This document shows, one piece after another, positions 1 through 44,791 of a stretch of 64,000 nucleotides of DNA. The translations under genes were made by a program, and so were the position numbers. Every line of letters starts with the position of its first letter. The stretch's first letter is position 1. This stretch comes from Dehalococcoidia bacterium (GTDB lineage: Bacteria > Chloroflexota > Dehalococcoidia > Lucifugimonadales > JAGWBF01): NCBI GenBank assembly GCA_034423015.1, contig DAOUJG010000063.1, positions 112,865-176,864 on the forward strand. Direction: 5' to 3'. Below the pieces are notes generated by a model, which had not been told where the DNA came from, searched no databases, and worked only from the letters and a program-made list of their open reading frames with translations.

Positions 1-14
1 GCGGGCGCGGACGG

Positions 15-1223
15 CTAGCGACAGCGCGGCAGATCCAGATACGAAAGGTCATTCCGCTCCACCTTCCCTAGACCGCTCGGAATGCACCCGCTCAACTCAT
101 TCCCGCCGAGATGCAGCAATTCCAGATTTGGCAGGGCGCCCAACTCAGGCGGTATCTCCCCGCTCAACTGATTCACTTCGAGGTTCAGGTTCACAAGATT
201 AGACAGGCTGCCCAACTCGGGCGGTATCTCTCCACTCAACTGATTGAATCGGAGATACAGCTCTTTCAGGTTGGACAGGGCGCCCAACTCAGGCGGTATC
301 TCACCGCTCAACTCGTTCACGTTGAGGATCAGACTTTCCAAGCTGGACAGGGCGCCCAACTCAGGCGGTATCTCACCGCTCAACTCATTCCCGCCGAGAT
401 GCAGCAATTCCAGATTTGGCAAGCCGCCCAACTCAGGCGGTATCTCACCGCTCAACTCGTTCACGTTGAGGATCAGAAATACCAAGCTGGACAAGCCACC
501 CAGCTCCGACGGTATCTCACCACTCAGCTCATTTTCGTTGAGGAACAGCTCTTTCAGGTTGGACAGGCCGCCCAGCTCCGGCGGTATCTCACCGCTCAAC
601 TCGTTGAAGCTGAGGGAGAGCTCTTTCAGGTTGGACAGGCCGCCCAGCTCCGGCGGTATCTCACCGCTCAACCAATTGTTGTGGAGGGACAGCACTTCCA
701 GGTTGGACAGGCCGCCCAGCTCCGGCGGTATCTCACCGCTCAACCCATTCGAGCCGAGGTGCAACTCTTCCAGGTTGGACAGATCGCCCAGCTCCGCCGG
801 TATCTCCCCCCTCAACCCATCCCAGAAGAGGAACAACTCTATCACGCGCCCGCTGCTGTCAGTGGTTACGCCGTGCCACTCCCCAACGGGAGCGTCGCTC
901 AGCCAGTTGTCGCTGCTATGCCAGTCGGCTCCTCCAGCGGCTTCGTAGAGGGCCTCCAGCGCAGCCCTCTCTTCGGCCAGCGTGGACGCCGGCGCAGGCG
1001 TTTGCGCCGGAGACTCCGTGGGCACGGTCGTAGGCGTTTGCGCCGGAGACTCCGTGGGCGCGGTCGTTGGCGTTTGCCCTGAGCTCGCAGCCGACGCGGG
1101 CGTCTGCCCCGGAGACGCCGTAGAGTCCGGTTCACCGGAGCAGGAGGCCAGCAGCAGCGCCGCCACGACAGCCAGCGCGGTCAGAAATGCGAATCGGGAT
1201 ATACTGGTCGTCATCTCTTTCAT
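15..1223 (-). CDS. LRR lipoprotein 1 (lipobox, Pro/Thr linker, plant-type N-cap, 11 x 24-aa LRR, C-cap)
   Basis: Lipobox LLLASC; repeats LxxLxLxxNxLSGEIPPELGxLxN; GGAG 8 nt before the ATG at 1223; TAG stop at 15-17. Confidence 0.92.
   Translation of the reverse strand: MKEMTTSISRFAFLTALAVVAALLLASCSGEPDSTASPGQTPASAASSGQTPTTAPTESPAQTPTTVPTESPAQTPAPASTLAEERAALEALYEAAGGADWHSSDNWLSDAPVGEWHGVTTDSSGRVIELFLFWDGLRGEIPAELGDLSNLEELHLGSNGLSGEIPPELGGLSNLEVLSLHNNWLSGEIPPELGGLSNLKELSLSFNELSGEIPPELGGLSNLKELFLNENELSGEIPSELGGLSSLVFLILNVNELSGEIPPELGGLPNLELLHLGGNELSGEIPPELGALSSLESLILNVNELSGEIPPELGALSNLKELYLRFNQLSGEIPPELGSLSNLVNLNLEVNQLSGEIPPELGALPNLELLHLGGNELSGCIPSGLGKVERNDLSYLDLPRCR
997..1078. repeat. 36-bp tandem repeat encoding the 12-aa Pro/Thr linker of LRR gene 1
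   Basis: ggcgtttgcgccggagactccgtggg at 997 and 1033, partial copy at 1069. Confidence 0.85.
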
Positions 1224-1290
1224 ATGGCACACTCCAGTCTAATGCTGGGTCTCTCTCCGAGGGAAAGAGGGCCCCTACGGGCGCGGACGG
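1224..1290 (-). repeat. 67-bp conserved intergenic spacer, copy 1 (hairpin plus RBS)
   Basis: Near-identical to 2608-2674; ctctttcc/ggagagag stem and GGAG on the minus strand. Confidence 0.85.
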
Positions 1291-2607
1291 CTAGCCGCAG
1301 GGCGGCAGCCCCAGACCCGAGATGTCACTCTGCTCCACTTCTCCGAGACCACCGGGTATGCACCCGCTCAACTGGTTCCCGTTAAGGCGCAGCTCTTTTA
1401 GATTGGGCAGGCCGCCCAACTCCGGCGGTATCTCTCCCCTCAACTGATTCACTTTGAGTTGAAGCCGTTCCAGGTTGGACAGGCTGCCCAGCTCCGACGG
1501 TATTTCCCCGCTCAACTCATTCCAACTGAGGTCCAGGTTTCTAAGATTGGGCAGGCCGCCCAGCTCCGACGGTATCTCTCCGGTCAACTCATTCCCGAAG
1601 ATGTGCAGCAGCTCCAGATTGGACAGGCTGCCCAGTTCCGACGGTATCTCCCCACTCAGCTGATTATTGCTGAGGAGCAGCGACTCCAGGTTGGACAGGC
1701 TGCCCAGCTCCGACGGTATCTCCCCACTCAACTGATTTTGGCTGAGGAACAGCGACTCCAGGTTGGACAGGCTGCCCAACTCCGGCGGTATCTCCCCGCT
1801 CAACTCATTCCCGTGGAGGTCCAGCAATTGCAGATTGGACAGGCTGCCCAACCACGACGGTATCTCCCCGCTCAACCCGGTCCCGCTGAGTCCCAACTCT
1901 TCCAGATTGGACAGGCCACCCAGCCATGGCGGTATCTCCCCGCTCAGCTCGATCCCGCTGAGGCTCAACTCTTCCAGATTGGACAGGTTGACCAACTCCG
2001 GCGGTATTTCACCCCTCAACTCATTGTAGCTGAGGGACAGGCTTCTAAGATTGGACAGGCTACCCAACCACGATGGTATCTCCCCGCTCAACTCGTTCCA
2101 GCCAAGGCGCAGGGTTTCCAGATTGGATAGGCCTCCCAGCTCCGGCGGTATCTCCCCGCCCAACTCATTCCAGCCGAGGCGCAGGGCTTCCAGATTGGAC
2201 AGGCCTCCCAGCTCCGTCGGTATCTCCCCTCTCAACCCATTTTCTTCGAGGTCCAGTTCTATCACGCGCCCGCTGTTGTCAGTGGTTACGCCGTGCCACT
2301 CCCCAATGGGAGCATCGCTCAGCCAGTTGTCGCTGCTTTCCCAGCCGGCTCCCCCGGCGGCTTCGTAGAGAGCCTTCAGCGCAGCCCTCTCTTCGGCCAG
2401 CGTGGACGCCGGCGCAGGCGTTTGCGCCGGAGACTCCGTGGGCGTCGGTGCAAGCGTTTGCCCTGGGCTCGCAGCCGACGCGGGCGTCTGCCCCGGAGAC
2501 GCCGTAGAGTCCGGTTCACCGGAGCAGGAGGCCAGCAGCAGCGCCGCCACGACAGCCAGCGCGGTCAGAAACGTGAATCGGGATACGCCGGTCGCCATCT
2601 CTTTCAT
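1291..2607 (-). CDS. LRR lipoprotein 2 (13 x 24-aa LRR)
   Basis: Same signal peptide, N-cap and C-cap as gene 1; start moved to MKEM (ATG 2607) behind the same GGAG. Confidence 0.92.
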   Translation of the reverse strand: MKEMATGVSRFTFLTALAVVAALLLASCSGEPDSTASPGQTPASAASPGQTLAPTPTESPAQTPAPASTLAEERAALKALYEAAGGAGWESSDNWLSDAPIGEWHGVTTDNSGRVIELDLEENGLRGEIPTELGGLSNLEALRLGWNELGGEIPPELGGLSNLETLRLGWNELSGEIPSWLGSLSNLRSLSLSYNELRGEIPPELVNLSNLEELSLSGIELSGEIPPWLGGLSNLEELGLSGTGLSGEIPSWLGSLSNLQLLDLHGNELSGEIPPELGSLSNLESLFLSQNQLSGEIPSELGSLSNLESLLLSNNQLSGEIPSELGSLSNLELLHIFGNELTGEIPSELGGLPNLRNLDLSWNELSGEIPSELGSLSNLERLQLKVNQLRGEIPPELGGLPNLKELRLNGNQLSGCIPGGLGEVEQSDISGLGLPPCG

Positions 2608-2674
2608 ATGGCGCACTCCAGTCTAATGCTGGGTCTCTCTCTGAGGGAAAGAGGGCCCCTACGGGCGCGAACGG
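2608..2674 (-). repeat. 67-bp conserved intergenic spacer, copy 2
   Basis: Near-identical to 1224-1290. Confidence 0.85.
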
Positions 2675-2858
2675 CTAGCCGCAGGGCGGCAGCCCCAGAT
2701 CCGAGAGGTCACTCCGATCCACGTCTCCGAGATCTCTTGGTTTGCACCCGCTCAACTGATTCTTGCCGAGGCGCAGCGCTACCAGATTGGACAGGCTGCC
2801 CAGCTCCGGTCGTATCCCTCCGCTCAACTCGTTCCAGCCGAGGGACAGATCTCCCAGT
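2675..2858 (-). pseudogene. Orphan 3' end of an LRR lipoprotein (about 1.5 LRR plus complete C-cap)
   Basis: A different frame reads LSLGWNELSGGIRPELGSLSNLVALRLGKNQLSGCKPRDLGDVDRSDLSDLGLPPCG* and has no start or N-cap of its own. Confidence 0.8.
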
Positions 2859-3978
2859 CCACTTCTTCGATACCACCGGGTATGCACCCGCTCAGCTGGT
2901 TTCCGCTGACATGCAGCAATCGCAGATTGGACAGGCTGCCCATCTCCGGTGGTATGTGACCGCTCAGTTGATTGTCGTTTAGCCACAGCAGTTCCAAATT
3001 AGACAGGCTACCCAGCTCCGCCGGTATCTCCCCGCTCAACTCATTGAATCTGAGTCCCAGCACTTTCAGATTGGACAGGCCGCCCAGCTCCGTCGGTATC
3101 TCTCCGCTCAACCCATTGAAGCTGAGAGACAGCTCTTCCAGATTTGACAGGCTGCCCAGGTCCGCCGGTATCGCTCCGCTCAATTGATTATTGCCGAGGG
3201 ACATGTCTTCCAGATTGGTTAGGCCGCCCAACTCAGGCGGTATCTCACCACTCAACTCATTCTCAAAGAGCGACAGCTCTTTCAGGTTGGGCAGGCTGCC
3301 CAGCTCCGGCGGTATCTCACCGCTCAGCTTATTGAAGCTGAGGAACAGCGTTTCCAGGTTGGACAGGCCGCCCAGCTCCGGCGGTATCTCACCGCTCAAC
3401 CGATTATTGGCGAGAATCAGCTGTTCCAGATTGGACAGGCTGCCCAGTTCCGGCGGTATCTCACCGCTCAACTCATTCCCGGCGAGAGTCAGCTGTTCCA
3501 GATTGGACAGGCTGCCCAGTTCCGACGGTATCTCACCACTCAAATGATTATTGCCGAGGGCCAACGTTTCCAGGTTGGACAGGCCGCCCAGCTCCGGCGG
3601 TATCTCACCACCCAACCGATTTTCTTCGAGGTCCAGCTCTATCACGCGCCCGCTGGCGTCAGTGGTTACGTTGCTCCATTCTCCAAGGGGAGCGTCGCTC
3701 AGCCAATTGCGACTGTACCTCCAGCGGGATCCCCCGGCAGCTTCGTAGAGAGCCTCCAGCGTAGCCCGCTCTGCTGCCAGCACGGCCGCTGGCGCAGGCG
3801 CCTGATCCGGAGACTCCGTCGGAACGGTCGTCGGCGTTTGCCCTGAGGTCGCAGCCGACGCGGGCGTTTGCTCCGGAGACTCCGCGGAATCCGGCTCACC
3901 GGAACAGGAGGCCAGCAGCAGCGCCGCCACGACAGCCAGCATGGTAAGCATCCGTTTGGTCATTTCCGCTATACGCAA
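2824..3978 (-). CDS. LRR lipoprotein 3 (11 LRR), C-cap cut short by a frameshifting junction
   Basis: Lipobox LLLASC and LRRs; ends GCIPGGIEEVD then unrelated residues instead of the DLxxLxLPxC cap. Confidence 0.85.
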   Translation of the reverse strand: MRIAEMTKRMLTMLAVVAALLLASCSGEPDSAESPEQTPASAATSGQTPTTVPTESPDQAPAPAAVLAAERATLEALYEAAGGSRWRYSRNWLSDAPLGEWSNVTTDASGRVIELDLEENRLGGEIPPELGGLSNLETLALGNNHLSGEIPSELGSLSNLEQLTLAGNELSGEIPPELGSLSNLEQLILANNRLSGEIPPELGGLSNLETLFLSFNKLSGEIPPELGSLPNLKELSLFENELSGEIPPELGGLTNLEDMSLGNNQLSGAIPADLGSLSNLEELSLSFNGLSGEIPTELGGLSNLKVLGLRFNELSGEIPAELGSLSNLELLWLNDNQLSGHIPPEMGSLSNLRLLHVSGNQLSGCIPGGIEEVDWEICPSAGTS

Positions 3979-4406
3979 CCTGCCTCGTCGAGCACCTCTA
4001 GGAGAACCTTCTCGGCCTATCCATGGTGGTATTGTCGTCGCCGTCGTTCCCGTCGCTTCGCTGGACCCAGGAGGATTTCGTTTCGATCATTCTCCAGTGG
4101 AGCAATCCTGGCAGTCCTCATCTCCCACTGGATTCTCAGTAGTCAGCTCTACCGACAATCGGAATGATCGCAGTTATGGCGGCGATCATCGCCAGAATGA
4201 TGGCGAACTCTATACCCAGGAGCGCCAGCCCTGTAGATCACTTCACTTATCTTCCAGGGCGTGTGCGCCAATACGGCCCAGGCGTCTCTTATTCGCGCCG
4301 GACCCAGCCGCACCTGTAGTCACCCGTTCTTCCTGTGCGGAAGCCAAGCGAACACTTCCCGACCGTGTCGCGGGCATACTCCCCCCAGAGGATACCACCG
4401 CATGCA

Positions 4407-4454
4407 TAACAGAGGGATAACAATTTGCGATAAGTTCAGTAACAGCTTGTAACA
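4407..4454. promoter_or_regulatory. Candidate OmpR/PhoB-type direct-repeat operator (4 x TAACA)
   Basis: TAACA at 4407, 4418, 4440 and 4450 (spacing 11/22/10) in an AT-rich patch upstream of the wHTH-containing regulator. Confidence 0.55.
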
Positions 4455-4528
4455 GTTCGCGGAATCCGGCATAATTGCCCCTGTAGCCGCCCATTCACTC
4501 TCCATAGGCAGACCATCGAGGTGACCAG

Positions 4529-6895
4529 TTGAAGAGACGGGACGAAGTGATGAGAGAGAACGATGCCCTGCGGGAGCGCCTTTCGCGCCTGAGCAGGGCC
4601 AGCCTTCGCATCACCGAAGACCTGGACTTCAACGCCGTGCTCCAGGGGGTGGTGGACAGCGCACGGTCGCTCACCTCCTCGCGCTACGGCGCGATCACCG
4701 TCACTGGGGAGGGCGGACACACGTCCGACTTCATCGTCTCCGGAATGACCAATGAGGAGCATCAGGGGCTCTGGAACATGCCGGAGGGTCTGGGGTTCTT
4801 CGAGTACCTCAGCGGCCTTACCGAGCCCCTGCGGGTCTCGAATATCGACAATCACCTGAGAGAGCTGGGTATGCCGGAGTTCTCGCCCTCCGTCCCGGTG
4901 ACCTCCCTACTGGTGGCTCCGATTCGCCACGGAAGGGGCTGGGTCGGCACCATCTTCCTGGGCCACGATACGCATGACCGGGAGTTCACCCAGGAGGATG
5001 AGGAGACGCTGGTGCTCTTCGCCTCCCAGGCGGCGATGGCCATCGCCAACGCCCGCAGGCATCGGGAGGAGCGGCGGGCCAGGGCAGACCTGGAGACGCT
5101 GGTGGACACCTCCCCGGTGGGCGTGGTGGTCTTCGACGCCGCGACCGGAGCCCCGAAGTCCTTCAACCGCGAGGCCATGAGGATCGTCGATAGCCTCCGC
5201 GACCCCGGGCAGTCCCCCGAGGACCTTCTCACCGTGGTGACCTTCAGGCGGGCCGATGGGCGGGTGGTGTCGCTGCGGGAGTTCCCGGTCGTGGAGGCGC
5301 TGCGCTCGGGCGAGACGCTGCGGGCCGAGGAGGTGGTCATCAACGTACCGGACGGGCGGAGCGTCACGCTGCTGCTCAACGCGACTCCCATCGTCTCGCC
5401 CGAGGGCGAGATAGAGTCGATGGTCGTCACCATGCAGGACATGGCCGACGTGGAGGAGCTGGAGCGGCTGCGGGCGGAGTTCCTGGCGATGGTGAGCCAC
5501 GAGCTGAGGACTCCCCTGACCTCCATCATGGGGTCGGTCACCGCGATCATGGACGCGGGTACGGACCTCGACCCCGCCGTGGTCCGCCAGTTCCTCCGCA
5601 TCATCGGGGACCAGGCCGGCAACATGAACGCCCTGGTCGCCGACCTTCTGGACGTGGCCCGCATCGAGACGGGCGAGCTGCCAATCGGTCCCGAGCCCGC
5701 CGAGGTTGCCGTGCTGGTGGACCGGGCGAGAATCGCCTTCAAGAGCGCGGGAGGCGGGAACGACCTTGCCATCGACATCGAGCCCGGCCTGCCCCTGGTG
5801 ATGGCGGACAGGCGGCGCATCGTCCAGGTGCTGGTCAACCTGCTCTCCAACGCGGCCCGGCACTCCCCCGAGTCGTCGGTCATCAGGATGAGCGCCGTGC
5901 GGGACGGCGTTCACGTGGCGTTCTCAGTGGCCGACGAGGGGCGGGGCATCCCGGCCGAGAGCCTGCCCGATCTGTTCCGCAAGTTCTCCGGGGTGCAGAC
6001 CGAGGAGCAGGGAGGGGACACGGGCCTGGGCCTCGCCATCTGCAAGGGCATCGTGGAGGCGCACGGGGGCCGCATCTGGGCCGAGAGCGACGGGCCGGGA
6101 GCGGGGGCGTGCTTCACCTTCACGCTGCCGACGGTCGAGGACTCCGGGGGCGGGCTCCCTTCGACATCGACGCGGCGTGACCGGATTGCGGAGGAGAAGA
6201 GGCCGCGCATCCTGGCGGTGGACGACGACCCCAACGACCTCCGCTACGTCCGCGACACCCTCGCCAAGTCTGGCTACGACCCGGTGGTGACCGGGGAGCC
6301 GGAGGAGGCGGTCCGCCTCGTGGCCGACGAGAGGCCGGAGCTTGTGCTGCTGGACATGATGCTCCCGGGTACGGACGGCATCGAGCTGATGAAGGACATC
6401 CTCGACGTGGCCGACGTGCCGGTCATCTTCCTGTCCGTCTACGGGCGGGAGGAGCTCATCGCCAAAGCCTTCGACACAGGGGCCGCCGACTACGTGGTCA
6501 AGCCCTTCTCGCCCACGGAGCTTTCGGCGAGGATCAGGGCTGCCCTTCGCCGGAGGGCCGCCGCGGAGCCGTCGGAGCCGTACGTGCGTGGCGACCTGAC
6601 CGTCGACTACTCAGGGCGCAGGGTGGTCCTGGCCGGGCGTCCCCTGCATCTCACGCCGAATGAGTACGGGGTGCTGGCCGAGCTTTCGGCCAACGCCGGG
6701 CGGCTGGTGACCTACGAGCGCCTCCTGAATCGGGTCTGGGGCGAGAAGAATGATGGGGATGTGCGGACCCTACGCACCACCATCGGCAGGCTCCGCCGCA
6801 AGCTGGGCGACGATGCGGACACCCCCACTTACATCTTCAACGAGCCCCGCGTCGGCTACCGGATGCCGGAGAGGGAGGATGACTCCGAGGGGTAA
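4529..6895 (+). CDS. Single-chain hybrid sensor kinase/response regulator: GAF-PAS-HisKA-HATPase-REC-OmpR-type wHTH
   Basis: H-box VSHELRTPL, N-box NLLSNA, G-boxes DEGRGI and GLGLAI, receiver VDDD...LLDMMLP...KPF, C-terminal LTPNEY...RLRRKLG...VGYR; no obvious TM helix. Confidence 0.92.
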   Translation: MKRRDEVMRENDALRERLSRLSRASLRITEDLDFNAVLQGVVDSARSLTSSRYGAITVTGEGGHTSDFIVSGMTNEEHQGLWNMPEGLGFFEYLSGLTEPLRVSNIDNHLRELGMPEFSPSVPVTSLLVAPIRHGRGWVGTIFLGHDTHDREFTQEDEETLVLFASQAAMAIANARRHREERRARADLETLVDTSPVGVVVFDAATGAPKSFNREAMRIVDSLRDPGQSPEDLLTVVTFRRADGRVVSLREFPVVEALRSGETLRAEEVVINVPDGRSVTLLLNATPIVSPEGEIESMVVTMQDMADVEELERLRAEFLAMVSHELRTPLTSIMGSVTAIMDAGTDLDPAVVRQFLRIIGDQAGNMNALVADLLDVARIETGELPIGPEPAEVAVLVDRARIAFKSAGGGNDLAIDIEPGLPLVMADRRRIVQVLVNLLSNAARHSPESSVIRMSAVRDGVHVAFSVADEGRGIPAESLPDLFRKFSGVQTEEQGGDTGLGLAICKGIVEAHGGRIWAESDGPGAGACFTFTLPTVEDSGGGLPSTSTRRDRIAEEKRPRILAVDDDPNDLRYVRDTLAKSGYDPVVTGEPEEAVRLVADERPELVLLDMMLPGTDGIELMKDILDVADVPVIFLSVYGREELIAKAFDTGAADYVVKPFSPTELSARIRAALRRRAAAEPSEPYVRGDLTVDYSGRRVVLAGRPLHLTPNEYGVLAELSANAGRLVTYERLLNRVWGEKNDGDVRTLRTTIGRLRRKLGDDADTPTYIFNEPRVGYRMPEREDDSEG

Positions 6896-6940
6896 GCGGC
6901 GTTGTAGGTCCTTATGGATTCAAAGGGAGGGTGGAGACAA

Positions 6941-7390
6941 ATGAGATCGACTCTGTTGGAGTTCATACCCCGCATGGCGCTTATGGCGGTGATTGCCCTG
7001 GCCGTGGCAGCCTGCGGCGGCAATGGTGAGGAGACGGGGGCTGCTCAGGACGCAGCAACGTCGGCGCTGGCCGCGGAGTCTGGCACGCCCGCTCTCCCGC
7101 TCGACACACCGGCCCCGACCGCCAACGAGACTGTCCCTGGGGGGATAGAGGATGCGGCCCGCAAGCTCCTGGCGGACGAGTTGGGAGTAGGCGAGGGCGA
7201 CTTCACGCTCGATAGCTCCGAGGGGATGGGATGGTCCGACGCCAGCCTTGTATGCCCGAAGGAGGGCTTCATGTACGCCCAAGTCCTCACTCCGGGCTAC
7301 AAGCTGGTCTTCGATCTCGCGGGCACGTCAGACGCCGTGCATACCAACTCCGACGCCTCACACATGGTGATCTGCGGAGACGGGCAGTAG
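6941..7390 (+). CDS. Lipoprotein with WxDxSLxCP...Q..TPGY...HT...C domain of unknown function
   Basis: Strong RBS before ATG 6941; lipobox LAVAAC; paired Cys motif recalled from uncharacterised Chloroflexota/cyanobacterial lipoproteins. Confidence 0.75.
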   Translation: MRSTLLEFIPRMALMAVIALAVAACGGNGEETGAAQDAATSALAAESGTPALPLDTPAPTANETVPGGIEDAARKLLADELGVGEGDFTLDSSEGMGWSDASLVCPKEGFMYAQVLTPGYKLVFDLAGTSDAVHTNSDASHMVICGDGQ

Positions 7391-7500: not shown

Positions 7501-7773
7501 CATCTCCCGCCGCCGCCCCACACTCATGGACCGGACCTCTCCGCCAAGAAATCCCGCTCCACCTTCAGCTGGCCGATCTCCTGGTACAACCGGGCCACCA
7601 GGGCGGCCTCATTCTTGGCCTTCTTCTCCTGGCCGTTGCCGAAGACGCCAGAGGCCCCTTCTATGAAGGCCTTCTTCCAGGTCTGAATCTGGCCCGGGTG
7701 CACCTCGTACCGGGCGGCCAGCTGGGCCACCGTATCCTGGCCCTTCACTGCCTCCAAAGCCACCTTGGCCTTG
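7501..7773 (-). mobile_element. IS3-family remnant (5'-truncated orfA plus first codons of orfB)
   Basis: KAKVALEA...VHPGQI..WKK...LYQEIGQLKVERDFL HTH transposase motif, followed by overlapping MSVGRRREM that then stops resembling orfB. Confidence 0.8.
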
Positions 7774-8156
7774 TTCGCGCATGCAGGCAGGCAGGGCCAC
7801 ACCGCGGCCTGCCGCCTCTCATTCAACCCGGTCTACATCTCATTCGGCTGTCCATGAGAACCGTAGTCTTCTGTCGATTGGAGGACGGACAACGAGGAGC
7901 AAGCCAGGGAGGAGGCTTGAGAGACGCATGGATAGGGGTGACTCGGTCTCCGACGGCCGCTGGGACTTGTATCACCGCCAGCTGGCGCAATGGGATCAGG
8001 AGAGCGAGGGGCTCCAGGGGTGTGCCACCTTGTATTTAGACACGAGCACTGTTCCCAGGCTCCTGCATGGGGTCCCTGCCAATGCTCGTGAGAATGGTGG
8101 GGCAATGATCTTGTCGGTCTTGCCGGTGCCACAAGACCGCCCAGTGAGGTAGAAGA

Positions 8157-8590: not shown

Positions 8591-8665
8591 TGGCTCCCCA
8601 GGTAGGATTCGAACCTACGACCTAGCGGTTAACAGCCGCCCGCTCTACCACTGAGCTACTGGGGA
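8591..8665 (-). tRNA. tRNA-Asn (GTT)
   Basis: TCCCCAG acceptor stem, D-arm GCTC/GAGC, anticodon loop CT-GTT-AA, TTCGAAT T-loop, encoded CCA; 75 nt. Confidence 0.98.
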
Positions 8666-9878: not shown

Positions 9879-10664
9879 ATGAAGATAGCCAGGTTCCGAC
9901 AGAAGCGAAGGATGGCCTACGGCGTGGTCGAGGGCGACGAGGTCGCCGAGGTGCGGGGCAGCATCTTCACCCGGTTCAGGATAACGGACACCCGCCACAA
10001 GCTGGACGACGTGGAGCTGCTGGCGCCCACGAACCCGTTGCAGATCTGGTGTCCCGGGCTCAACTTCGCGGAGCACCTGGAGTTCGCCGGGTCGGTGCTG
10101 GGAGAGGAGAAGACCCCGGGGTCCCAGCACCCGGAGCCGTGGCAAAAGGGCAGAAACGCCCTCAACGCCCACGAGGGCCGCATAGTCATACCCAAGGACT
10201 CGTGGGGCGGCGTCCACTACGAGGGCGAGGCCGTGGCGGTCATCGGCAGGCAATGCCGGAGGGTGGCGCCGGACCAGGCGCTGAGCCACGTGCTGGGGTT
10301 CACCTGCGGCAACGACGTCAGCGAGCGCGCCTGGCAGCGGGACGACTGGACCTTCTGGAGGGCCAAGGGCTCGGATACCTTCGCCCCCGTCGGGCCTTGG
10401 ATCGAGACCGACGTGGACCCGGGCAACCTGGAGATGGTGGTCAGGCTAAACGGCGGCGAGGTGCAGAGGGCCAACACCCGGGACATGCTTCACAACTTCC
10501 CCACGGTGATCAGCTACATCAGCCAGCAGGTCACCCTCTACGCGGGAGACCTGGTGTTCTCGGGGACCACGGGCAGCACCACCGCCATGAAGCCCGACGA
10601 CGTGGTGGAGGTGGATATCCGGGGCATTGGCGTACTCCGCAACTACGTACACTCCGAGGAGTAG
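9879..10664 (+). CDS. Fumarylacetoacetate hydrolase family protein
   Basis: GLNFAEH, HYEGE, GFTCGNDVSER, KGSDTFAPVGPW, GDLVFSGT motifs. Confidence 0.93.
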   Translation: MKIARFRQKRRMAYGVVEGDEVAEVRGSIFTRFRITDTRHKLDDVELLAPTNPLQIWCPGLNFAEHLEFAGSVLGEEKTPGSQHPEPWQKGRNALNAHEGRIVIPKDSWGGVHYEGEAVAVIGRQCRRVAPDQALSHVLGFTCGNDVSERAWQRDDWTFWRAKGSDTFAPVGPWIETDVDPGNLEMVVRLNGGEVQRANTRDMLHNFPTVISYISQQVTLYAGDLVFSGTTGSTTAMKPDDVVEVDIRGIGVLRNYVHSEE

Positions 10665-10684
10665 CCCGCGGCACGCCCCTCGTA

Positions 10685-10713
10685 TTGTCTTTCCAGCCTG
10701 TCAATTCTATACT
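10685..10713 (+). promoter_or_regulatory. Sigma70-type promoter for the LON-domain gene
   Basis: TTGTCT-17 bp-TATACT, 10 nt before ATG 10724. Confidence 0.6.
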
Positions 10714-10723
10714 GTCACCTGAT

Positions 10724-11395
10724 ATGGAGGACGCCCAGACCCAACCCGACGGGCCCACGGAAGAGCTCCGGCTGTTCCCGCTGAACGTGGTACTGTTCCC
10801 CGGGATGACGATGCCCCTGCGCATCTTCGAAGAGCGGTACAAGCTGATGATCGGCGAGTGCCTGGATGCCAAGGAGCCCTTCGGCGTGACCCTCATCCAG
10901 GCGGGGGCAGAGGTCGGGGGCGGGGCCACTCCCCACCTGACCGGCACCACGGCCCGGATCACCAACGTGGAGCGCCTGGAGGACGGGCGCATGAACCTCG
11001 CCACCAAGGGCGAGAGGCGGTTCCGCATCGTCGACACCGTCCACGAGGTGCCCTACTTGAAGGCACGGGTCCGCTATCTTCCCGAGGAGGCCGGAGAGGT
11101 GGACCCCGAGGAGCTGGCCAAGCTTCGCGGCCTGTTCAAGGAGTACCTGCGCGGCCTGGCCTCCCTGCAGGGTGGATGGGTGAGGCAGGCGCAGGCTCCG
11201 GAGGATCCGGGGCCGCTGTCCCACACCGTGGCCCACTACATGGAGCTCCCGGCCATGGCCAAGCAACGCCTGCTGGAGCTGGCTTTTATCGGAGAGCGGA
11301 TACACTACGAGGTACCCCTCCTGGAGGGAGCGAACCGCCGCCTCAGGGAGCAGATCGTGGGCCGCAGCCCCTACAAGGGCGCCCGCCTGAACTAG
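10724..11395 (+). CDS. LON peptidase substrate-binding domain protein
   Basis: LRLFPLNVVLFPG..MPLRIFEERYK.MI..C motif; real start is ATG 10724, not the 9806 extension. Confidence 0.9.
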   Translation: MEDAQTQPDGPTEELRLFPLNVVLFPGMTMPLRIFEERYKLMIGECLDAKEPFGVTLIQAGAEVGGGATPHLTGTTARITNVERLEDGRMNLATKGERRFRIVDTVHEVPYLKARVRYLPEEAGEVDPEELAKLRGLFKEYLRGLASLQGGWVRQAQAPEDPGPLSHTVAHYMELPAMAKQRLLELAFIGERIHYEVPLLEGANRRLREQIVGRSPYKGARLN

Positions 11396-11821: not shown

Positions 11822-12394
11822 TCATTTGGGCCTGTGGACACTGGGTAGCCCGATGAATCCTTCAGCCATGCCCCAGCGGTCTCGCTTGGAAGCGATGTAT
11901 GCAGCTACCGGGCTGGTTCTGTCGATGCCGGCACTGCAATGCACGAGCACTGGCTTGGGCAATTGGTCGAATGCTCTCAAGACCCTCTCCTTGTCATCTT
12001 CGGACGGCTCTTGGTAGTCAGCCATTGGGATATGGCGAAACTCGAACCCTTGCGAACGATAATACCCATACAGCCCATCAGGATGCAGTTCGAGTCCGCC
12101 TCTGATGTAGTACTTCTCGTGCTGAGCTTCTTCAAGTAGGCTCACAATTGAGCGAATTCCTGAAGACCTTACCTGTTCAACCCAGACTTCGACGAGTGTC
12201 CTAGCCTCTGGAGGCAACGGGTTACGTCCTCCATAGTCGGGATGGTCCCGAAGTGGCCGCGTTGAACACGCCAAGCTTCCGTCCAGTAGCCAAACTAGAA
12301 GCTCCGAATCGTTTCCTACTTGACTGCGAAATCTAGTGCTTCGGATCTTTGCCCGAATCCCCTTGGTCAACTCTGCCAATTCCATAAGGTGCAA
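11822..12394 (-). CDS. Protein-tyrosine/dual-specificity phosphatase family protein
   Basis: CX5R P-loop VHCSAGIDRTS; general-acid region IPMAD. Confidence 0.88.
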   Translation of the reverse strand: MHLMELAELTKGIRAKIRSTRFRSQVGNDSELLVWLLDGSLACSTRPLRDHPDYGGRNPLPPEARTLVEVWVEQVRSSGIRSIVSLLEEAQHEKYYIRGGLELHPDGLYGYYRSQGFEFRHIPMADYQEPSEDDKERVLRAFDQLPKPVLVHCSAGIDRTSPVAAYIASKRDRWGMAEGFIGLPSVHRPK

Positions 12395-12410
12395 TTTGCT
12401 CCAAGATCGC

Positions 12411-14183
12411 TTAGCTTGAAGGGCGGGGCCACACCTTCGTTATCGTCTCCGCCAACGCCTCGCTCCGTTGTTTGATGGCGGTTTCATCCCAACGATCGGA
12501 GGCTGAATCCAACACTTCCTTGTTGAGCATCAAAGTGCTAAAGGTATCCAATGCCCGCCGCTTGTCCCCCCATGAACGGTTGGACATCGACGAGTTCAGC
12601 GCTCTTGTTGCTAGGGTCAAGTTACCAATAAGGCCAATATGCTCCTTGCGCAATTCCTCTGCTCGGGCCTCGTCAATGTCTTGGTGAGGGAAAGGCCACC
12701 CATCCGAAGTCCAGCGCTGGGGCATCAAATGCTCTACAGTGAGGTTTGTCGGGACAGCTAGTTGTTCAGTCATGGATGGTCTCTTGCTAAGCTCGATGGT
12801 TTCCAGGATCATCTTACGCCTGGCCGCGTTCCCCGGCATCGGCCTCATGGACAGATAGTCTATTACCTGCTTGTCGTCTGGCCAGGTCCGATTTTCCGCG
12901 GTCTGGCTGACTAGGTAGTCAATAAGCACTTGATTGGCGGGCTCCTGCGTGTGTTGTGCCAAATGACTCACCAGTTCGATGAACAGGGCGTTAAGCCCCT
13001 GAGTACCCAAGTTGCATAGCACCCGCCGGACGAGAAAGCTTTCCACTGCACGAACCGCAGACTGCCGCTCTTGGTCGTTGATGTCCTGGGTGTAAAGCCA
13101 GAGCAGTGGCGGCATGACGACGCTTATTTCCAAGACCTTAAGGCGCTTCAGGATGTCGTCTATTCCCGGTTGTCTGTTTTCTTCGATGTTCTTGTAGACC
13201 ATGCCGACATTCCGCACATCTACGGCCACAGCTTCAATCGTCCGCTCTGTCTCTCCCACATACCTCCTAAAGGCTGCGGCCGTGCGATGCATTTGGACAT
13301 ATTCACGAAGGCGCATGATACACCAGTAGTTGAGGAAGCGGTCCAGTTGTATCTGAAGAACCCGCCCGCGGCTTTCCTCCTGCCTCCACCAGTCGTCTTC
13401 AAACATCCCCCAAAGCGTACGTGCCTTGGTTTCGTCATCAATTAGGTCGGCTTCGTACATCACCGTGTTCTTGATGTAGTCGGCCTGTTTGAGGGGTTCG
13501 CCTCGACTGTTCAGTATCTCAAAGGTGAAGTGGGGTTGGTCTCCCTTGTCCAGCTCTATGGTGGCAACTTTCAGATACTTCTTCACAACGTCGTAGAGCG
13601 CGTGTGCTCGGGCATCGACATGCACCGGATCCTCATTGAGCCAATTCGTTACCCACTCGCGCAGGTGCGAGTAAGCTTCAACTATGGGCCTCGACGGCCG
13701 ATTGGGGCTTAGTCTACCGTTGATAATGTCCTGGAAGTCCGCTTGGTCCAAACGATTTGACTGACGCATCTTCGTGGCATTTAGGTGGTCTCCGCCCGTA
13801 AGCGAATCCCTGTTGAATAGGTAGTCACGGAGGGAAGCGAAGTCCGACGTATCCACCAGTGCCGCCGTAAACGCCCCATCCAGGACCTTGATAAGCAGCT
13901 GCAGAGTCGTCAGGCGCTGCTGGCCATCGACGATCAAGATTGGCTGTACTTCGGAGAGCGGCGCGTCGCTCTCTCGCGGCTGCACGACTATCGCGCCCAT
14001 GAAGTGTAGGCGCACGTCCGATGCGCTCGGTGCCTTCAGCAAATCCTCCGCGACTTTCTGGACGTCGTCCCATAGAGCCTTCCACTCCTCATTCCCCCAG
14101 GCATACGGACGTTGAAATACTGGAATCCGATAGGACACGTCACGGTCAAACAGATCTTTCATGCCCATGATGCTCGCTTCCAT
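12411..14183 (-). CDS. GmrSD-family type IV restriction endonuclease (DUF262 + DUF1524/HNH)
   Basis: IPVFQRPYAW, VDGQQRLTT, FEILNSRG (DUF262); TVEHLMPQ...GNLTL...N...N (DUF1524); AAGGAG RBS. Confidence 0.93.
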   Translation of the reverse strand: MEASIMGMKDLFDRDVSYRIPVFQRPYAWGNEEWKALWDDVQKVAEDLLKAPSASDVRLHFMGAIVVQPRESDAPLSEVQPILIVDGQQRLTTLQLLIKVLDGAFTAALVDTSDFASLRDYLFNRDSLTGGDHLNATKMRQSNRLDQADFQDIINGRLSPNRPSRPIVEAYSHLREWVTNWLNEDPVHVDARAHALYDVVKKYLKVATIELDKGDQPHFTFEILNSRGEPLKQADYIKNTVMYEADLIDDETKARTLWGMFEDDWWRQEESRGRVLQIQLDRFLNYWCIMRLREYVQMHRTAAAFRRYVGETERTIEAVAVDVRNVGMVYKNIEENRQPGIDDILKRLKVLEISVVMPPLLWLYTQDINDQERQSAVRAVESFLVRRVLCNLGTQGLNALFIELVSHLAQHTQEPANQVLIDYLVSQTAENRTWPDDKQVIDYLSMRPMPGNAARRKMILETIELSKRPSMTEQLAVPTNLTVEHLMPQRWTSDGWPFPHQDIDEARAEELRKEHIGLIGNLTLATRALNSSMSNRSWGDKRRALDTFSTLMLNKEVLDSASDRWDETAIKQRSEALAETITKVWPRPSS

Positions 14184-15717: not shown

Positions 15718-16932
15718 GTGATGGCCCAGCAAGGGGAGATACACAACCTCCGTCTGGTGTCCCACAGCGACCTCGGCGGCTTCGGCAACATCGGCGAGGG
15801 CGTGGCCCTTCAGCAGGCCTCCGACGGGCGTCGCGTGCTCTGGCTGGCCCACGAGGGCCCTCCCAAGGACGTGACCGCGGTGGACGTCAGCGACCCGGCC
15901 AACCCCCGGGTGGTCGCCCAGACGGAGCTGCCCCACCAGCAGATCCGGTCCAACTCCCTGGCGGTGGTCGACGACCTGCTCCTGGTGGCCTACCAGGTCT
16001 CGCGGCCTGGGATCTCCGACGCCGGCATGGGCGTGTACGACATCTCCAGACCCGAGGAGCCCAGGCGGGTAAGCTTCTTCGACACCTCGGGGCCCAGCTC
16101 CCGGGGGACCCACTGCCTCTGGTGCGTCGACGGGCAGTACGCCCACCTGAGCACCGGGGCCGCCGACTTCACGCCGACCGACCCCAAGGACGACCAGTTT
16201 CACATGATAGTCGACGTCGGCGACCCGGCCAGGCCTGCGGAGGTGGGCCGCTGGTGGCTGCCGGGCACACGGGAGGGAGACGACGCCCCTCCGCCGGTCC
16301 GCCATCCGGAGCACGACGTGGGCTACCGGGTGCACAACGTCAACGTCTATCCCGGCCGGCCCGACCGGGCATACCTGGGCTACGTGGACGCCGGCATCGT
16401 CATCCTGGACATCGCGGACCTCTCGCGCCCTAGCATGGTCACCCAGCTCGACTATCACCCCCCACTGACGGGGTTCACCCACACCGTGCTGCCCCTGTTC
16501 GACAGGGGTCTGCTGGTGGTGGCGGAGGAGGCCAGCGAGCACGACAACTGCGAGGACTGGCCCAAGGTCGTGTGGGTGGTGGACTCCAGCGTGGAGACCA
16601 ACCTCGTTATGTTGAGCACCCTGCCCACCGACAAGGACAAGTACTGCGCCATCCCGGGGCGGTACGGGGCCCACAACCTCCACGAGAACCTGCCAGTACC
16701 CACCTCCCACGTTTCCGACACCATCGTGTACAGCACCTTCTTCAACGCGGGCCTGCGGATCCACGACATCTCCGACCCCTTCCGTCCCCAGGAGATAGCC
16801 TACTTCGTGCCGCCGGTGCCCGAGGGAGCCCGGGCCAACTCGGTGAACGACGTTTACGTGGACGAGGGGGAGCTGATCTACACCGTGGACCGGATAAAGG
16901 GCGGCCTCTACATCCTGGAGCCGGCCTGGTAG
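15718..16932 (+). CDS. LVIVD-repeat beta-propeller protein
   Basis: Repeated xxxVDVSDP-type motifs; GFTHT and GAHNLHEN; AGLRIHDISDP. Confidence 0.85.
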   Translation: MMAQQGEIHNLRLVSHSDLGGFGNIGEGVALQQASDGRRVLWLAHEGPPKDVTAVDVSDPANPRVVAQTELPHQQIRSNSLAVVDDLLLVAYQVSRPGISDAGMGVYDISRPEEPRRVSFFDTSGPSSRGTHCLWCVDGQYAHLSTGAADFTPTDPKDDQFHMIVDVGDPARPAEVGRWWLPGTREGDDAPPPVRHPEHDVGYRVHNVNVYPGRPDRAYLGYVDAGIVILDIADLSRPSMVTQLDYHPPLTGFTHTVLPLFDRGLLVVAEEASEHDNCEDWPKVVWVVDSSVETNLVMLSTLPTDKDKYCAIPGRYGAHNLHENLPVPTSHVSDTIVYSTFFNAGLRIHDISDPFRPQEIAYFVPPVPEGARANSVNDVYVDEGELIYTVDRIKGGLYILEPAW

Positions 16933-20960: not shown

Positions 20961-21027
20961 CGGCACCTCCTTTAGTGGGTCGGGCGTGGGTCCGGCAGCG
21001 TAGCCGGCGGCAGGGACCGGGCCGCGC

Positions 21028-44733: not shown

Positions 44734-44791
44734 TCGCTAGGTATCCCGGCGAGTCCGACCCCCGCATCCTTCGATGCGACAGGAGACGGGA

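Follow-up and report, generated by a model that had tools for sequence, protein, structure and literature searches.

A tandem array of predicted surface LRR lipoproteins with a constrained framework and a variable face in a Dehalococcoidia bacterium

The window that we analyzed, a stretch of 64,000 nucleotides from a Dehalococcoidia bacterium, opens with a tandem array of genes for leucine-rich repeat (LRR) lipoproteins. The array is of a known kind and belongs to the LRR "eukaryotic-like proteins" of sponge-associated bacteria, which form a very large family. We consider it rather probable that this is a birth-and-death, gene-converting family of surface proteins with predicted display and binding functions, and, as part of the same joint explanation, that the array represents a small tandem gene family, with four or more members originally, for cell-surface lipoproteins whose lipidation is predicted from the sequence. 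Units and genes of the family are gained and lost, and identical framework tracts of 39 to 54 nt would act as RecA-type recombination substrates by which variable segments are moved. Selection for new binding surfaces may maintain the diversity of the face. The proteins would face outward from the cell surface and bind partners outside the cell that are themselves variable, with host, phage, or neighboring microbes as possible candidates. Diversification would proceed on an evolutionary timescale in the population's germ line, by neither a dedicated nor a somatic mechanism.

Three genes and the remnant of a fourth

Open reading frames (ORFs) and their translations placed three co-oriented lipoprotein genes on the minus strand: gene 1 (15-1223, 402 aa), gene 2 (1291-2607, 438 aa), and gene 3 (2824-3942, 372 aa). 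Unit parsing divided their LRR domains (54-845, 1330-2265, and 2854-3645) into 11, 13, and 11 units of 24 residues, and TRF found 72-bp arrays, in agreement with the paralogs and unit counts given by a first-pass annotation of the sequence. Pfam assigned LRR_1/LRR_4/LRR_8 domains to gene 1. Ahead of each ORF stands GGAG, 8 nt before the ATG, and the three proteins have the same domain order: signal peptide, lipobox LLASC, Pro/Thr/Ser/Ala-rich linker, helical N-cap, and 24-residue units. As predicted, each would consist of a Sec/SPII signal peptide, a lipidated Cys, a Pro/Thr-rich stalk of 40 to 55 residues, the helical N-cap, the LRRs, and a two-Cys C-cap. A 36-bp tandem repeat (985-1103, minus strand; TRF and an alignment with a 36-nt indel) encodes TESPAQTPTT(A/V)P in the linker of gene 1, which has one 12-aa unit more than the linkers of genes 2 and 3.

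The first-pass annotation described a common signal peptide with lipobox, N-cap, and C-cap, which holds in general; the C-cap is intact in gene 1, where it has two Cys, and in gene 2, but not in gene 3. There it is cut off at a deletion junction at ∼2857-2859, and a novel 10-aa tail ends the protein. Past LSGCIPGGIEEVD, gene 3 continues, in a different frame, into what is left of a fourth paralog (2675-2857, minus strand; ORF 2675-2986), which had been overlooked. The remnant consists of two degenerate units (GGIRPE and GCKPRD) and an intact C-cap end with its stop codon; it lies in a frame different from that of gene 3, is fused into the gene 3 C-cap, and is followed by the usual 67-nt spacer. 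This spacer carries the GGAG ribosome-binding site and, from the sequence and the alignment of the 5' regions, occurs on the minus strand at 1224-1290 and again at 2608-2674. The gene 3/remnant junction is the site of a deletion. A separate ENA contig, on which the gene 1 protein was called identically and gene 3 was called at 372 aa, is 100% identical to window positions 1-5015 and then turns into unrelated sequence, so the array ends at gene 1.

On the other side, an intergenic region (3943-4528) is common to the array and to a divergent neighbor, a fused sensor kinase/response regulator gene (4529-6895, plus strand; GAF-PAS-HisKA-HATPase-REC-winged helix by Pfam). The region contains an element of ∼186 nt (4333-4517) that recurs twice on a neighboring contig, and one promoter-like site on the plus strand (4447-4475). 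Kinase homologs adjoin LRR arrays at 8 of 80 LRR-anchored loci and at 0 of 13 kinase-anchored loci, and a tie of the kinase to the array is uncertain.

A constrained framework and a diverse face

The plant receptor-kinase (PS) type proposed earlier for these LRRs was borne out, as the best PDB matches were the ectodomains of GSO1, FLS2, TDR, and MIK2 (top sequence match 6s6q, E = 1e-153), with which Foldseek agreed; the AF2 model of the gene 2 protein is an LRR solenoid over residues 107 to 420. The window proteins share with the plant ectodomains (GSO1, FLS2, TDR/PXY, and MIK2) the 24-residue unit LxxLxLxxNxLSGxIPxxLGxLxxL and, ahead of the first unit, a W..GV..D motif in a helical N-cap. Unlike the plant receptor kinases, they have no transmembrane helix or kinase and would be anchored by the predicted lipid and the PT-rich stalk; Pfam found no LRRNT_2 in them, and their N-cap lacks the Cys pair. 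Bacterial LRR proteins serve in host interaction, and Leptospira and Listeria have multigene families of such proteins. Profile matches to bacterial LRR proteins (Leptospira LIC proteins, internalins, and Xanthomonas XopAC/XopAE/XopL) were weak, with NCBIfam scores of 16 to 117 bits, far below the curated cutoffs of 450 to 1600 bits; the window proteins belong to another LRR class and have no LPXTG, NEAT, or T3SS features.

The variable decapeptide differs in all 29 internal units (29 of 29 variable segments distinct); the first-pass annotation had described the x positions of LxxLxLxxN as different in nearly every unit. Entropy is highest at positions 3, 5, 7, and 8 of this motif (2.8 to 3.5 bits), where change among the window units is near saturation, and lower at positions 2 and 10. 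Variation is concentrated on the LxxLxLxx face, and the 18 framework positions per unit are constrained: their codons have 85% identity from unit to unit, with a dN/dS of about 0.2 that indicates purifying selection. The description of the constant part as almost invariant at the DNA level was overstated: codons 11 to 24 have a mean identity of 84%, and 26 of 29 42-mers are distinct. Whole units have a mean identity of 75% in nucleotides and 69% in amino acids. The x positions on the convex side of the PS consensus (14, 17, 18, 21, 23, and 24) are close to fixation as well, have position-specific nonpreferred codons, and show a uniformity well beyond what the x's in the plant-specific LRR consensus call for. 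Because the framework codons are not those that the genome prefers (ATA, 80% versus 19%; AAT, 62% versus 13%; GC3, 0.69 to 0.76 versus about 0.9), their low synonymous divergence is not due to codon bias.

The six x positions of LxxLxLxxNx, chiefly 3, 5, 7, and 8, evolve at or above the synonymous rate. Over all unit pairs in the window, framework dS was 0.46 and dN was 0.08, and x4 dN was 1.7; the bootstrap interval of pN(x4) - pS(framework) was 0.25 to 0.38, which excludes 0, and the ratio of face nonsynonymous to framework synonymous change was 2 to 4. The excess variation of the face expected from the first pass thus appears in the all-pairs estimates but not in the ten closest unit pairs of the window, where x-position nonsynonymous change was 0.27 and framework synonymous change was 0.22 (ratio, 1.2; Fisher P = 0.34). 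As the closest pairs show no significant excess, positive selection in the window array rests on saturated all-pairs estimates. Related Dehalococcoidia arrays had face/framework ratios of 7.6 to 40, with framework dS of 0.03 to 0.18 and saturated faces, and in one of these relatives (L004) the ratio of 40 went with a framework dS of 0.028. Ratios in arrays of distant phyla were 0.9 to 1.7.

Duplication and exchange in the window and among relatives

Blocks of one, two, and four units have been tandemly duplicated inside genes. The nearest neighbor lies in the same gene for 16 of 29 units (9.1 expected, P = 0.02) and within two units for 11 of these 16, and in gene 1 TRF reported repeat periods of 144 and 288. 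The recurring tracts seen in the first pass, both on the minus strand, are exact: positions 88-133 equal 376-421 (46 nt, LELLHLGGNELSG), covering one unit's end and the next unit's variable segment, and positions 281-333 equal 425-477 (53 nt, LILNVNELSGEIPPELG; LILNVNELSG...). Both are longer than expected in a run test (P = 0.0095 and 0.0006, respectively, uncorrected for about 60 offsets), and only one of the two survives correction for multiple offsets. LSLSFN and LRFN are indeed present in genes 1 and 3. Identical framework tracts of 39 to 54 nt occur both within genes and between them; by exact-match comparison, one at 696-745 in gene 1 equals 3352-3401 in gene 3 (50 nt, minus strand). 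A length of 50 nt is sufficient for homologous recombination.

The 5' module of gene 1 (846-1290, minus strand; spacer, signal peptide with lipobox, PT-rich linker, and N-cap) matches that of gene 2 (2266-2674) at 92% identity across 300 nt, including 105 exact nucleotides (1083-1187 and 2467-2571). Between these genes, dS was 0.106 in the 5' module and 0.57 in the framework of the best collinear LRR alignment. A near-identical module thus stands on noncollinear LRR domains, and the histories of the two are discordant. No between-gene unit pair exceeded 89% identity, and at a dS of about 0.5 the units are old. Exchange within the window is only suggested, by the 5' module, the identical tracts, and the one deletion junction.

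A search for the family returned more than 7,771 matches. Among 80 genome loci, most were from Dehalococcoidia, and others were from Acidimicrobiia, Longimicrobiales, Caldilineaceae, and Tectimicrobiota; tandem arrays of 4 to 8 genes were found at many of them. The closest relatives of the window array are in Dehalococcoidia (Chloroflexota) MAGs, and chromosome-level MAG assemblies of relatives have the same architecture, tandem arrays included. The MAG taxa carrying the family are, we presume, typical sponge symbionts, and the source organism is probably a sponge-associated member of the Chloroflexi, a habitat read from its relatives. The enrichment in sponge symbionts mentioned in the first pass is in line with the abundance of the family in these MAGs and with the LRR eukaryotic-like proteins of sponge Chloroflexi, including SAR202 and Caldilineae, which are postulated mediators of host-microbe interaction (PMC6306507). 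The family resembles those proteins in its abundance in sponge-associated lineages, and the relatives found here are often in tandem. Our literature search, incomplete for papers on eukaryotic-like proteins, found no account of diversification at the codon level or of unit replacement in the LRR proteins of sponge symbionts.

Between orthologous genes of two close relatives, L005 and L006, the numbers of changed x codons in successive units were 2, 6, 0, 5, 0, 5, 6, 0, 0, 5, 2, and 0 of 6 (dispersion P = 4e-7), and L006 contains an intragenic copy of LAH|LRWLDLSGNE. Here variable segments are replaced in all-or-none fashion, which directly attests to the swapping of units within the family; the module shuffling that the first-pass annotation proposed therefore stands for the family, and the signs of it within the window are only suggestive. 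At a locus with a common upstream flank, five species have 5, 2, 2, 1, and 2 genes.

Alternative accounts and analogous systems

Ordinary LRR proteins, shaped by structural constraint and neutral drift of exposed residues with no adaptive diversification or meaningful exchange, would fit the closest unit pairs, in which x-position pN is close to framework pS, and the low ratios in distant phyla; variable x positions are common to all LRR proteins (PMC2946307). We consider this account unlikely, given the near fixation of the convex-side x positions with nonpreferred codons, the bootstrap interval, the related arrays that pair low framework dS with saturated faces, the bimodal segment replacement between orthologs, and the discordant module and LRR histories. 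Those saturated faces, and third positions that are kept at x codons 2 and 3 (NNA and NNG) in several arrays, are what a dedicated mutator randomizing the x codons (a diversity-generating retroelement or another codon-targeted process) might leave behind. Such a mutator is the least likely of the accounts weighed here: no reverse transcriptase is present among the 40 ORFs scanned in the window, invariant framework adenines contradict adenine-directed mutagenesis, third-position diversity of the window x codons fits point mutation with selection (P = 0.52), the deficit in relatives is inconsistent across positions or arrays, and the bimodal replacement indicates recombination, not mutation. It is also very improbable that the array, its truncated gene 3, and the remnant arose from collapsed or chimeric repeats in the assembly. 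Short-read assemblers have difficulty with 72-bp repeats that contain such identical tracts, the window edge lies 14 nt past the gene 1 stop codon, and short-read contigs of relatives break near arrays, but the separately deposited contig matches over 5,015 nt, most units are uniquely placeable at their mean identity, and the chromosome-level assemblies of relatives agree.

The same contig breaks (L083 stops 237 nt upstream of the kinase gene) would also be expected of a contingency locus with programmed or high-frequency shuffling, VLR-like or antigenic-variation-like, that gave each cell a differing receptor or adhesin set. The framework tracts could sustain frequent RecA recombination, and the segment replacement in relatives and the deletion junction would suit such a locus. 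We nonetheless regard it as improbable. No recombinase, deaminase, or reverse transcriptase was found in the 40 ORFs scanned, and defense-system models had no match; the genes are complete, and the window holds no donor cassettes or cassette library, the one degenerate remnant being the only partial copy. A unit dS of about 0.5 fits old events, not ongoing high-rate exchange, and two assemblies are 100% identical over 5 kb. Lamprey VLRs are assembled somatically, with a cytidine deaminase, from an incomplete germ line gene and flanking cassettes; they are LRR solenoids, capped at the N and C ends, in which interchangeable modules combine a constant framework with a variable concave face. The window proteins resemble them in solenoid, caps, framework, concave face, and modular build, but the first pass's loose analogy does not extend to the mechanism.

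For a birth-and-death, gene-converting family, the closer analog is, by likeness of pattern, the combination of concerted evolution and diversifying selection known from the repeats of fungal NLRs (PMC1805685), and in our best reading the window array appears nearer to these than to lamprey VLR assembly. The WD/ANK/TPR repeats of fungal NLRs (het-d/het-e and the NWD family) have high internal conservation (PMC1805685, PMC4986451), and bacterial NLRs carry similar WD/TPR repeats (bioRxiv 10.1101/2020.01.06.895854). Likenesses are a scaffold conserved at the DNA level, few binding-surface positions per unit under diversifying selection, exchange of units within and between family members, and varying repeat number. 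The fungal proteins have another fold and are intracellular, whereas the window encodes LRR proteins predicted to be extracellular lipoproteins, and the amino acid identity of its units is below the 85% criterion of highly conserved NLR repeats.

The LRR array and the class of its proteins

Three minus-strand genes at the start of the window encode LRR lipoproteins: gene 1 (positions 15-1223; 402 amino acids [aa], 11 LRR units), gene 2 (1291-2607; 438 aa, 13 units), and gene 3 (2824-3942; 372 aa, 11 units). The genes were delimited from their open reading frames (ORFs) and by in-register parsing of the units, and each starts at an ATG 8 nt after a GGAG. All 35 units of 24 aa are in register, and the TRF period of 72 bp agrees, bearing out the three co-oriented paralogs with 11, 13, and 11 LRRs described in the first-pass annotation. 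In the 64-kb window, no LRR motif clusters were found besides these genes and the remnant of a fourth paralogue (minus strand, 2857 down to 2675), which lies one base out of the gene 3 frame. The intergenic spacers are of equal length (67 nt). No intrinsic terminators were found between genes 1 to 3; the sole terminator-like site falls inside gene 1, and shuffled sequences yield such sites at least as often.

Each protein runs from a signal peptide through the lipobox LLAS/C and a Pro/Thr/Ser/Ala-rich linker to a helical N-cap (ERAALxALYEAAGG..W....NWLSDAP.GEW.GVTTD..GRV) and then to the 24-residue units. The signal peptide, MKEMATGVSRFTFLTALAVVAALLLAS/C, is present in all three genes with DNA identity tracts of 36 to 105 nt, and a 36-bp tandem repeat in the linker (985-1103) has one additional copy in gene 1. 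Judged by eye, genes 1 to 3 all have the SPII features (charged n-region, hydrophobic h-region, lipobox [LVI][ASTVI][GAS]C). Cells of this class are monoderm. From sequence features, the proteins are predicted to be exported lipoproteins on a flexible stalk, with the LRR solenoid displayed outside the cell.

The C-cap had been taken as common to all three genes. It closes genes 1 and 2 (LSGCIP...LP.C) but is not intact in gene 3, where the frame leaves the repeat after LSGCIPGGIEEVD, enters unlike sequence, and stops. Behind it, the remnant holds two degenerate units (GGIRPE and GCKPRD), a full C-cap end (DLSDLGLPPCG), and a stop, followed by the standard spacer ahead of gene 2. The boundary between gene 3 and the remnant is a deletion junction, at which gene 3 lost its end and the fourth paralogue most of its length. 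At the other end, the array stops at gene 1. Continuation past the window start was rejected because the spacer-like 17 nt after the gene 1 stop diverge immediately. A separate ENA contig is 100% identical to window positions 1-5015 and then enters unrelated non-coding sequence; after another 7 kb it carries a different LRR lipoprotein gene.

The per-position unit consensus, LEELSLSGNELSGEIPPELGGLSN, fits the plant-specific (PS) pattern LxxLxLxxNxL(S/T)GxIPxxLGxLxxL. The best PDB sequence matches were ectodomains of plant LRR receptor kinases (GSO1, E = 1e-153, then FLS2, TDR, and MIK2), and Leptospira LRR proteins ranked far lower. An AlphaFold2 model of gene 2, made with no alignment, had a mean pLDDT of 74.9, with residues 1-64 disordered, an N-cap helix, and a regular solenoid at 107-420; its top Foldseek matches were also plant ectodomains. 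Pfam returned LRR families only, and LRRNT_2, the N-terminal cap with a cysteine pair, had no match in these proteins at E ≤ 0.01. The N-cap is without cysteines, yet its motif W..GV..D..GRV resembles LRRNT_2. The PDB sequence and Foldseek matches thus confirm the PS class, with the exception of the absent Cys-pair N-cap (LRRNT_2), and the repeat type is that of plant receptor kinases, as first proposed. Named NCBIfam LRR families (internalins, XopAC/XopAE/XopL, LIC_11051) gave best scores of 16 to 117 bits against curated cut-offs of 450 to 1600.

Variability of the predicted binding face and turnover of units

We compared the 29 internal units at the x positions (2, 3, 5, 7, 8, and 10 of LxxLxLxxNx) and at the other 18 positions, the framework. 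Amino acid entropy was highest at positions 3, 5, 7, and 8 (2.8 to 3.5 bits), lower at positions 2 and 10 (1.5 to 2.0 bits), and at most 1.6 bits at the remaining positions. All 29 variable decapeptides are distinct, so the concentration of variation at the x positions seen on first reading is real. Internal units share on average 0.69 of their amino acids (0.85 in the framework alone). Their DNA identity is 85% in framework codons, 47% in x codons, and 37% in the four central x codons. The description of the constant part as almost invariant at the DNA level was too strong for the window: codons 11-24 are 84% identical, with 26 distinct 42-mers among the 29 units.

Over all pairs of internal units (Nei-Gojobori), dS was 0.46 and dN 0.08 in the framework, compared with 0.78 and 1.7 at positions 3, 5, 7, and 8. 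The face dN is thus 3.8 times the framework dS and 2.1 times the x codons' own dS, and the bootstrap 95% interval for pN at the four central positions minus framework pS is 0.25 to 0.38, which excludes 0. The excess expected from dN/dS at these LRR positions is therefore present among all pairs but not among the ten closest disjoint pairs, where pN at x positions was 0.27 against a framework pS of 0.22 (ratio, 1.2; P = 0.34, not significant). The units use non-preferred codons at specific positions (Ile15 is ATA in 29/29, against 19% genome-wide; likewise Leu11 TTG, Leu6 CTC, and Asn AAT), and their GC3 is 0.69 to 0.76 rather than about 0.9 as elsewhere, so the low framework dS is not due to codon bias. 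It is safe to state for the window array that the face evolves at least neutrally and that the framework is constrained; change of the face above neutrality is supported, but only in comparisons that are saturated.

Within the window, units are also duplicated, and their exchange is suggested. The recurrences first noticed near 90-130/379-420 and 305-333/449-477 are exact: 88-133 equals 376-421 (46 nt), and 281-333 equals 425-477 (53 nt). Both tracts exceed the expectation from surrounding divergence under a site-heterogeneous null (P = 0.0095 and 0.0006, respectively), and after a rough correction for ∼60 offsets only the 53-nt tract remains significant. Identical framework tracts of 38 to 50 nt also connect genes 1, 2, and 3. 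The units follow gene boundaries weakly (mean identity, 0.748 between genes versus 0.78 for adjacent units). The most similar unit belongs to the same gene for 16 of the 29 units, against 9.1 expected (P = 0.02), and for 11 of these 16 it is no more than two units away; local tandem duplication therefore dominates, and TRF reports periods of 2 and 4 units within gene 1. Only the first and cap units can be matched as collinear orthologues among genes 1 to 3. Genes 1 and 2 share a 5' module, made up of spacer, signal peptide, linker, and N-cap, that is 92% identical, with 105 nt exact and a dS of 0.106, whereas their LRR domains, even when aligned collinearly in the best way, show a framework dS of 0.57. 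Because module and LRR domains differ in history, recombination between paralogues is required. Structural turnover is visible at the gene 3/remnant junction.

The contrast between face and framework is far sharper in related Dehalococcoidia arrays, which carry the same ATA/TTG/CTC/AGC codon signature. In the array of one related MAG, L004, framework dS was 0.028 and the face ratio was 40; the ratio was 7.6 to 12 in L003, L005, L006, L008, L017, and L026 and 0.9 to 2.7 in arrays from other phyla. In L004 (8926-11224), L003, L005, L006, and L008, all related Dehalococcoidia MAGs, a 42- to 45-nt framework is identical in nearly every unit (in L004, in nearly all of 24) and the six x codons differ. 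Five species share a common upstream flank of ∼1 kb (∼85% identity), with 5, 2, 2, 1, and 2 LRR genes behind it. L005 and L006 have collinear first genes of 13 units each, with 95.4% identity in the N-terminal module and a framework dS of 0.048. Between them, the numbers of changed x residues per unit are 2, 6, 0, 5, 0, 5, 6, 0, 0, 5, 2, and 0 of 6. Change is all or none (dispersion chi-square, 51; 11 df; P = 4e-7), with 10 of 12 units at the extremes against 1.1 expected. Therefore, whole variable segments have been replaced between otherwise near-identical orthologues, as the idea that constant cores act as homology arms for module shuffling predicts. In L006, a block LAH/LRWLDLSGNE recurs at units 1/2 and 6/7 with 96% identity, an intragenic copy across the framework-variable boundary; L005 has two identical units, 10 and 11. 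Exchange is thus seen directly in the relatives; in the window it is suggested by the mosaic 5' module, the identical tracts, and the block duplications.

Mechanism, known diversification systems, and origin

Unit duplication, recombination between paralogues, and deletion have occurred, and in the relatives segments have also been replaced. The scaffold is constant, the framework is constrained, and the face is unconstrained to diversifying. Of the overall interpretation first offered, the hypervariable face stands, and so does the recombining modular architecture, mainly from the relatives. Ordinary homologous recombination through identical framework tracts would move the variable segments, and selection for new binding surfaces would keep the face diverse. 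Variation confined to the face, a framework constant down to its non-preferred codons, and the swapped segments in relatives suggest recognition of changing partners rather than of one fixed ligand; such partners would be extracellular and variable, namely, a host, phage, or other microbes. The analysis also picks out which residues binding experiments could mutate or graft.

Dedicated mutagenesis was also considered. Among relatives (L003, L004, L005, L006, and L008), x codons 2 and 3 have a fixed third base (NNA, NNG) and first and second bases close to saturation, and position 8 shows the opposite. A third-position deficit at positions 2 and 3 with an excess at position 8 gives no consistent sign of codon-targeted mutagenesis; in the window, a simulation of point mutation with selection for amino acid change matches the third-position diversity of x codons (P = 0.52). 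No reverse transcriptase, deaminase (AID/APOBEC type), or recombinase was found among the 40 larger window ORFs scanned with Pfam, and the 64-kb window has three complete genes and one degenerate remnant but no library of partial LRR cassettes. The framework shows no change at its adenines, and all bases vary in the x codons. These results do not support either a somatic mechanism like that of lamprey variable lymphocyte receptors (VLRs) or a diversity-generating retroelement (DGR), and we rejected a DGR or other targeted mutagenesis on the lack of reverse transcriptase in the 40 ORFs, the framework adenines, and the inconsistent third-position signature. The proposed VLR analogy holds for architecture but not for mechanism, with complete genes here and neither cassettes nor a dedicated enzyme. 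PADLOC had no match for the LRR array, and its membership in a defence system was rejected on that basis.

PRDM9 and VLRs are vertebrate examples of such an evolutionary regime. The closest described one is that of the highly internally conserved repeats of fungal NLR genes. There, WD, ANK, and TPR repeats evolve in concert, their units are reshuffled both inside a gene and from gene to gene, and a few positions on the binding surface are under positive selection (PMC1805685; PMC4986451). Such repeats are defined by units at least 85% identical over at least 100 aa (PMC4986451), whereas the window units have 69% amino acid identity; L004 is nearer at the DNA level. Similar WD/TPR repeats have been noted in bacterial NLRs. 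Fungal NLR repeats have been the main described case of this regime, which would here be extended to bacterial surface proteins. The case for the window is moderate, the array being an older, more diverged family member. A broader reading, which we consider improbable, is that the LRR arrays of sponge-associated Dehalococcoidia, the window's included, jointly form a combinatorial surface-receptor repertoire. Segments would be moved continually between units, genes, and loci through identical framework tracts and renewed far above the synonymous rate (ratios of 10 to 40 in relatives), possibly with a mechanism biasing change to face codons, and the products could recognise host, phage, or neighbouring cells. 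If this is true, bacteria would have their own equivalent of the repeat diversification in VLRs or fungal NLRs.

The family is very large: the matches listed for gene 2 include more than 7,771 proteins with E ≤ 1e-10 and are dominated by longer LRR proteins; the N-terminal 135 aa as query returned short proteins only, at ≤75% identity. In contigs from a one-genome-per-species collection, which lacks the window's own genome, the best 80 loci were 41 to 62% identical. They come mostly from Dehalococcoidia MAGs and also from Acidimicrobiia, Longimicrobiales, Caldilineaceae, Tectimicrobiota, Rhodothermales, and 'Aldehydirespirator', and tandem arrays of 4 to 8 co-oriented LRR (lipo)protein genes are common among them. 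We take these taxa and the MAG isolate names to be typical of sponge symbionts and sponge projects. No genomic feature marks sponge symbionts more consistently than eukaryotic-like proteins (ELPs) of the LRR, ankyrin, and TPR types. We infer a sponge-associated Dehalococcoidia origin for the window organism. LRR proteins are described as ELPs of sponge symbionts, within sponge Chloroflexi those of SAR202 and Caldilineae (PMC6306507), and the array probably belongs to these known LRR ELPs of sponge-type symbionts as a rather diverged new member. No literature on such an evolutionary regime in sponge-symbiont LRR proteins was found, the literature searched holding the key ELP papers only in part. 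Exact-protein look-up of the LRR proteins returned one contig only, identical to the window; the protein cluster look-up and a spacer probe in JGI metagenomes gave no match.

Neighbouring genes and the rest of the window

Divergent to the array, window 4529-6895 (plus strand) encodes GAF, PAS, HisKA, HATPase, receiver, and OmpR-type winged-helix domains in one polypeptide, which is thus both sensor kinase and regulator. It is 73 to 79% identical to Dehalococcoidia and metagenome homologues and has no exact record. In 8 of the 80 loci (L050, L075, L023, L074, L004, L019, L009, and L013), a kinase homologue (48 to 73% identity) is found no more than 10 kb from an LRR array, but of 13 kinase-anchored JGI metagenome loci none carried LRR genes next to the kinase; a regulatory link is therefore no more than tentative. 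The window shares the kinase alone with loci L083, L084, and L050. A conserved, operon-like kinase-LRR unit was dropped given the 0/13 count.

A non-coding element of ∼115 to 186 nt occurs in three copies within ∼11 kb, at window 4333-4517 and, on the neighbouring contig L002, at 5371-5552 and 10659-10772. The copies are 77 to 80% identical and all point the same way; TAACAG motifs recur in them, and they share a conserved core ...GGAATCCGGCATAATTGCCCCTGTAG.CGCCCATTCACT.TCCAT. The window copy lies between the LRR array and the kinase gene and holds the only promoter-like site, at 4447-4475 (plus strand). Absent from the other fetched loci, the element may act as an operator, encode a small RNA, or represent a miniature mobile element. 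Downstream of the kinase, a small lipoprotein gene without a Pfam family (6914-7390, plus strand) has an 80%-identical (nt) paralogue at L002 11132-12064. Beside that paralogue stands an LRR lipoprotein gene (L002 12081-13628) of a different subfamily, with LTGEIPxELGQL and other codon choices. Directly past the window start, L002 6263-10495 encodes a 607-aa secreted protein without Pfam matches and a 770-aa fibronectin type III repeat protein; therefore, the LRR array is part of a larger cluster of surface and secreted protein genes.

By Pfam scan, the remainder of the window encodes ordinary metabolism. A low-GC island (11822-14183, minus strand; GC, 0.54) holds a GmrSD-type (type IV restriction-like) defence gene at 12411-14183 (PADLOC Orf5/HEC-06/mREase_IV) and a DSP-phosphatase of polymorphic-toxin type at 11822-12394. 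Close by are a transposase HTH fragment (7524-7826) and tRNA-Asn (8591-8665), and the region has the appearance of an integration hotspot. At the window end, a homologue of Ku, a protein of non-homologous end joining (63105-63998, minus strand), may bear on the origin of deletions such as the gene 3/remnant junction. Two further repeat proteins are present, a HEAT-repeat protein at 38872-39795 (minus strand) and an LVIVD-repeat protein at 15718-16932 (plus strand). Hydantoinase/oxoprolinase genes, four B paralogues and one A subunit in 30 kb (19209-21134, 25732-27483, 27493-29580, 44774-46546, and 46602-48365), stand among SDR, MFS, and TldD/PmbA genes. Such local amplification of a single enzyme family is unusual.
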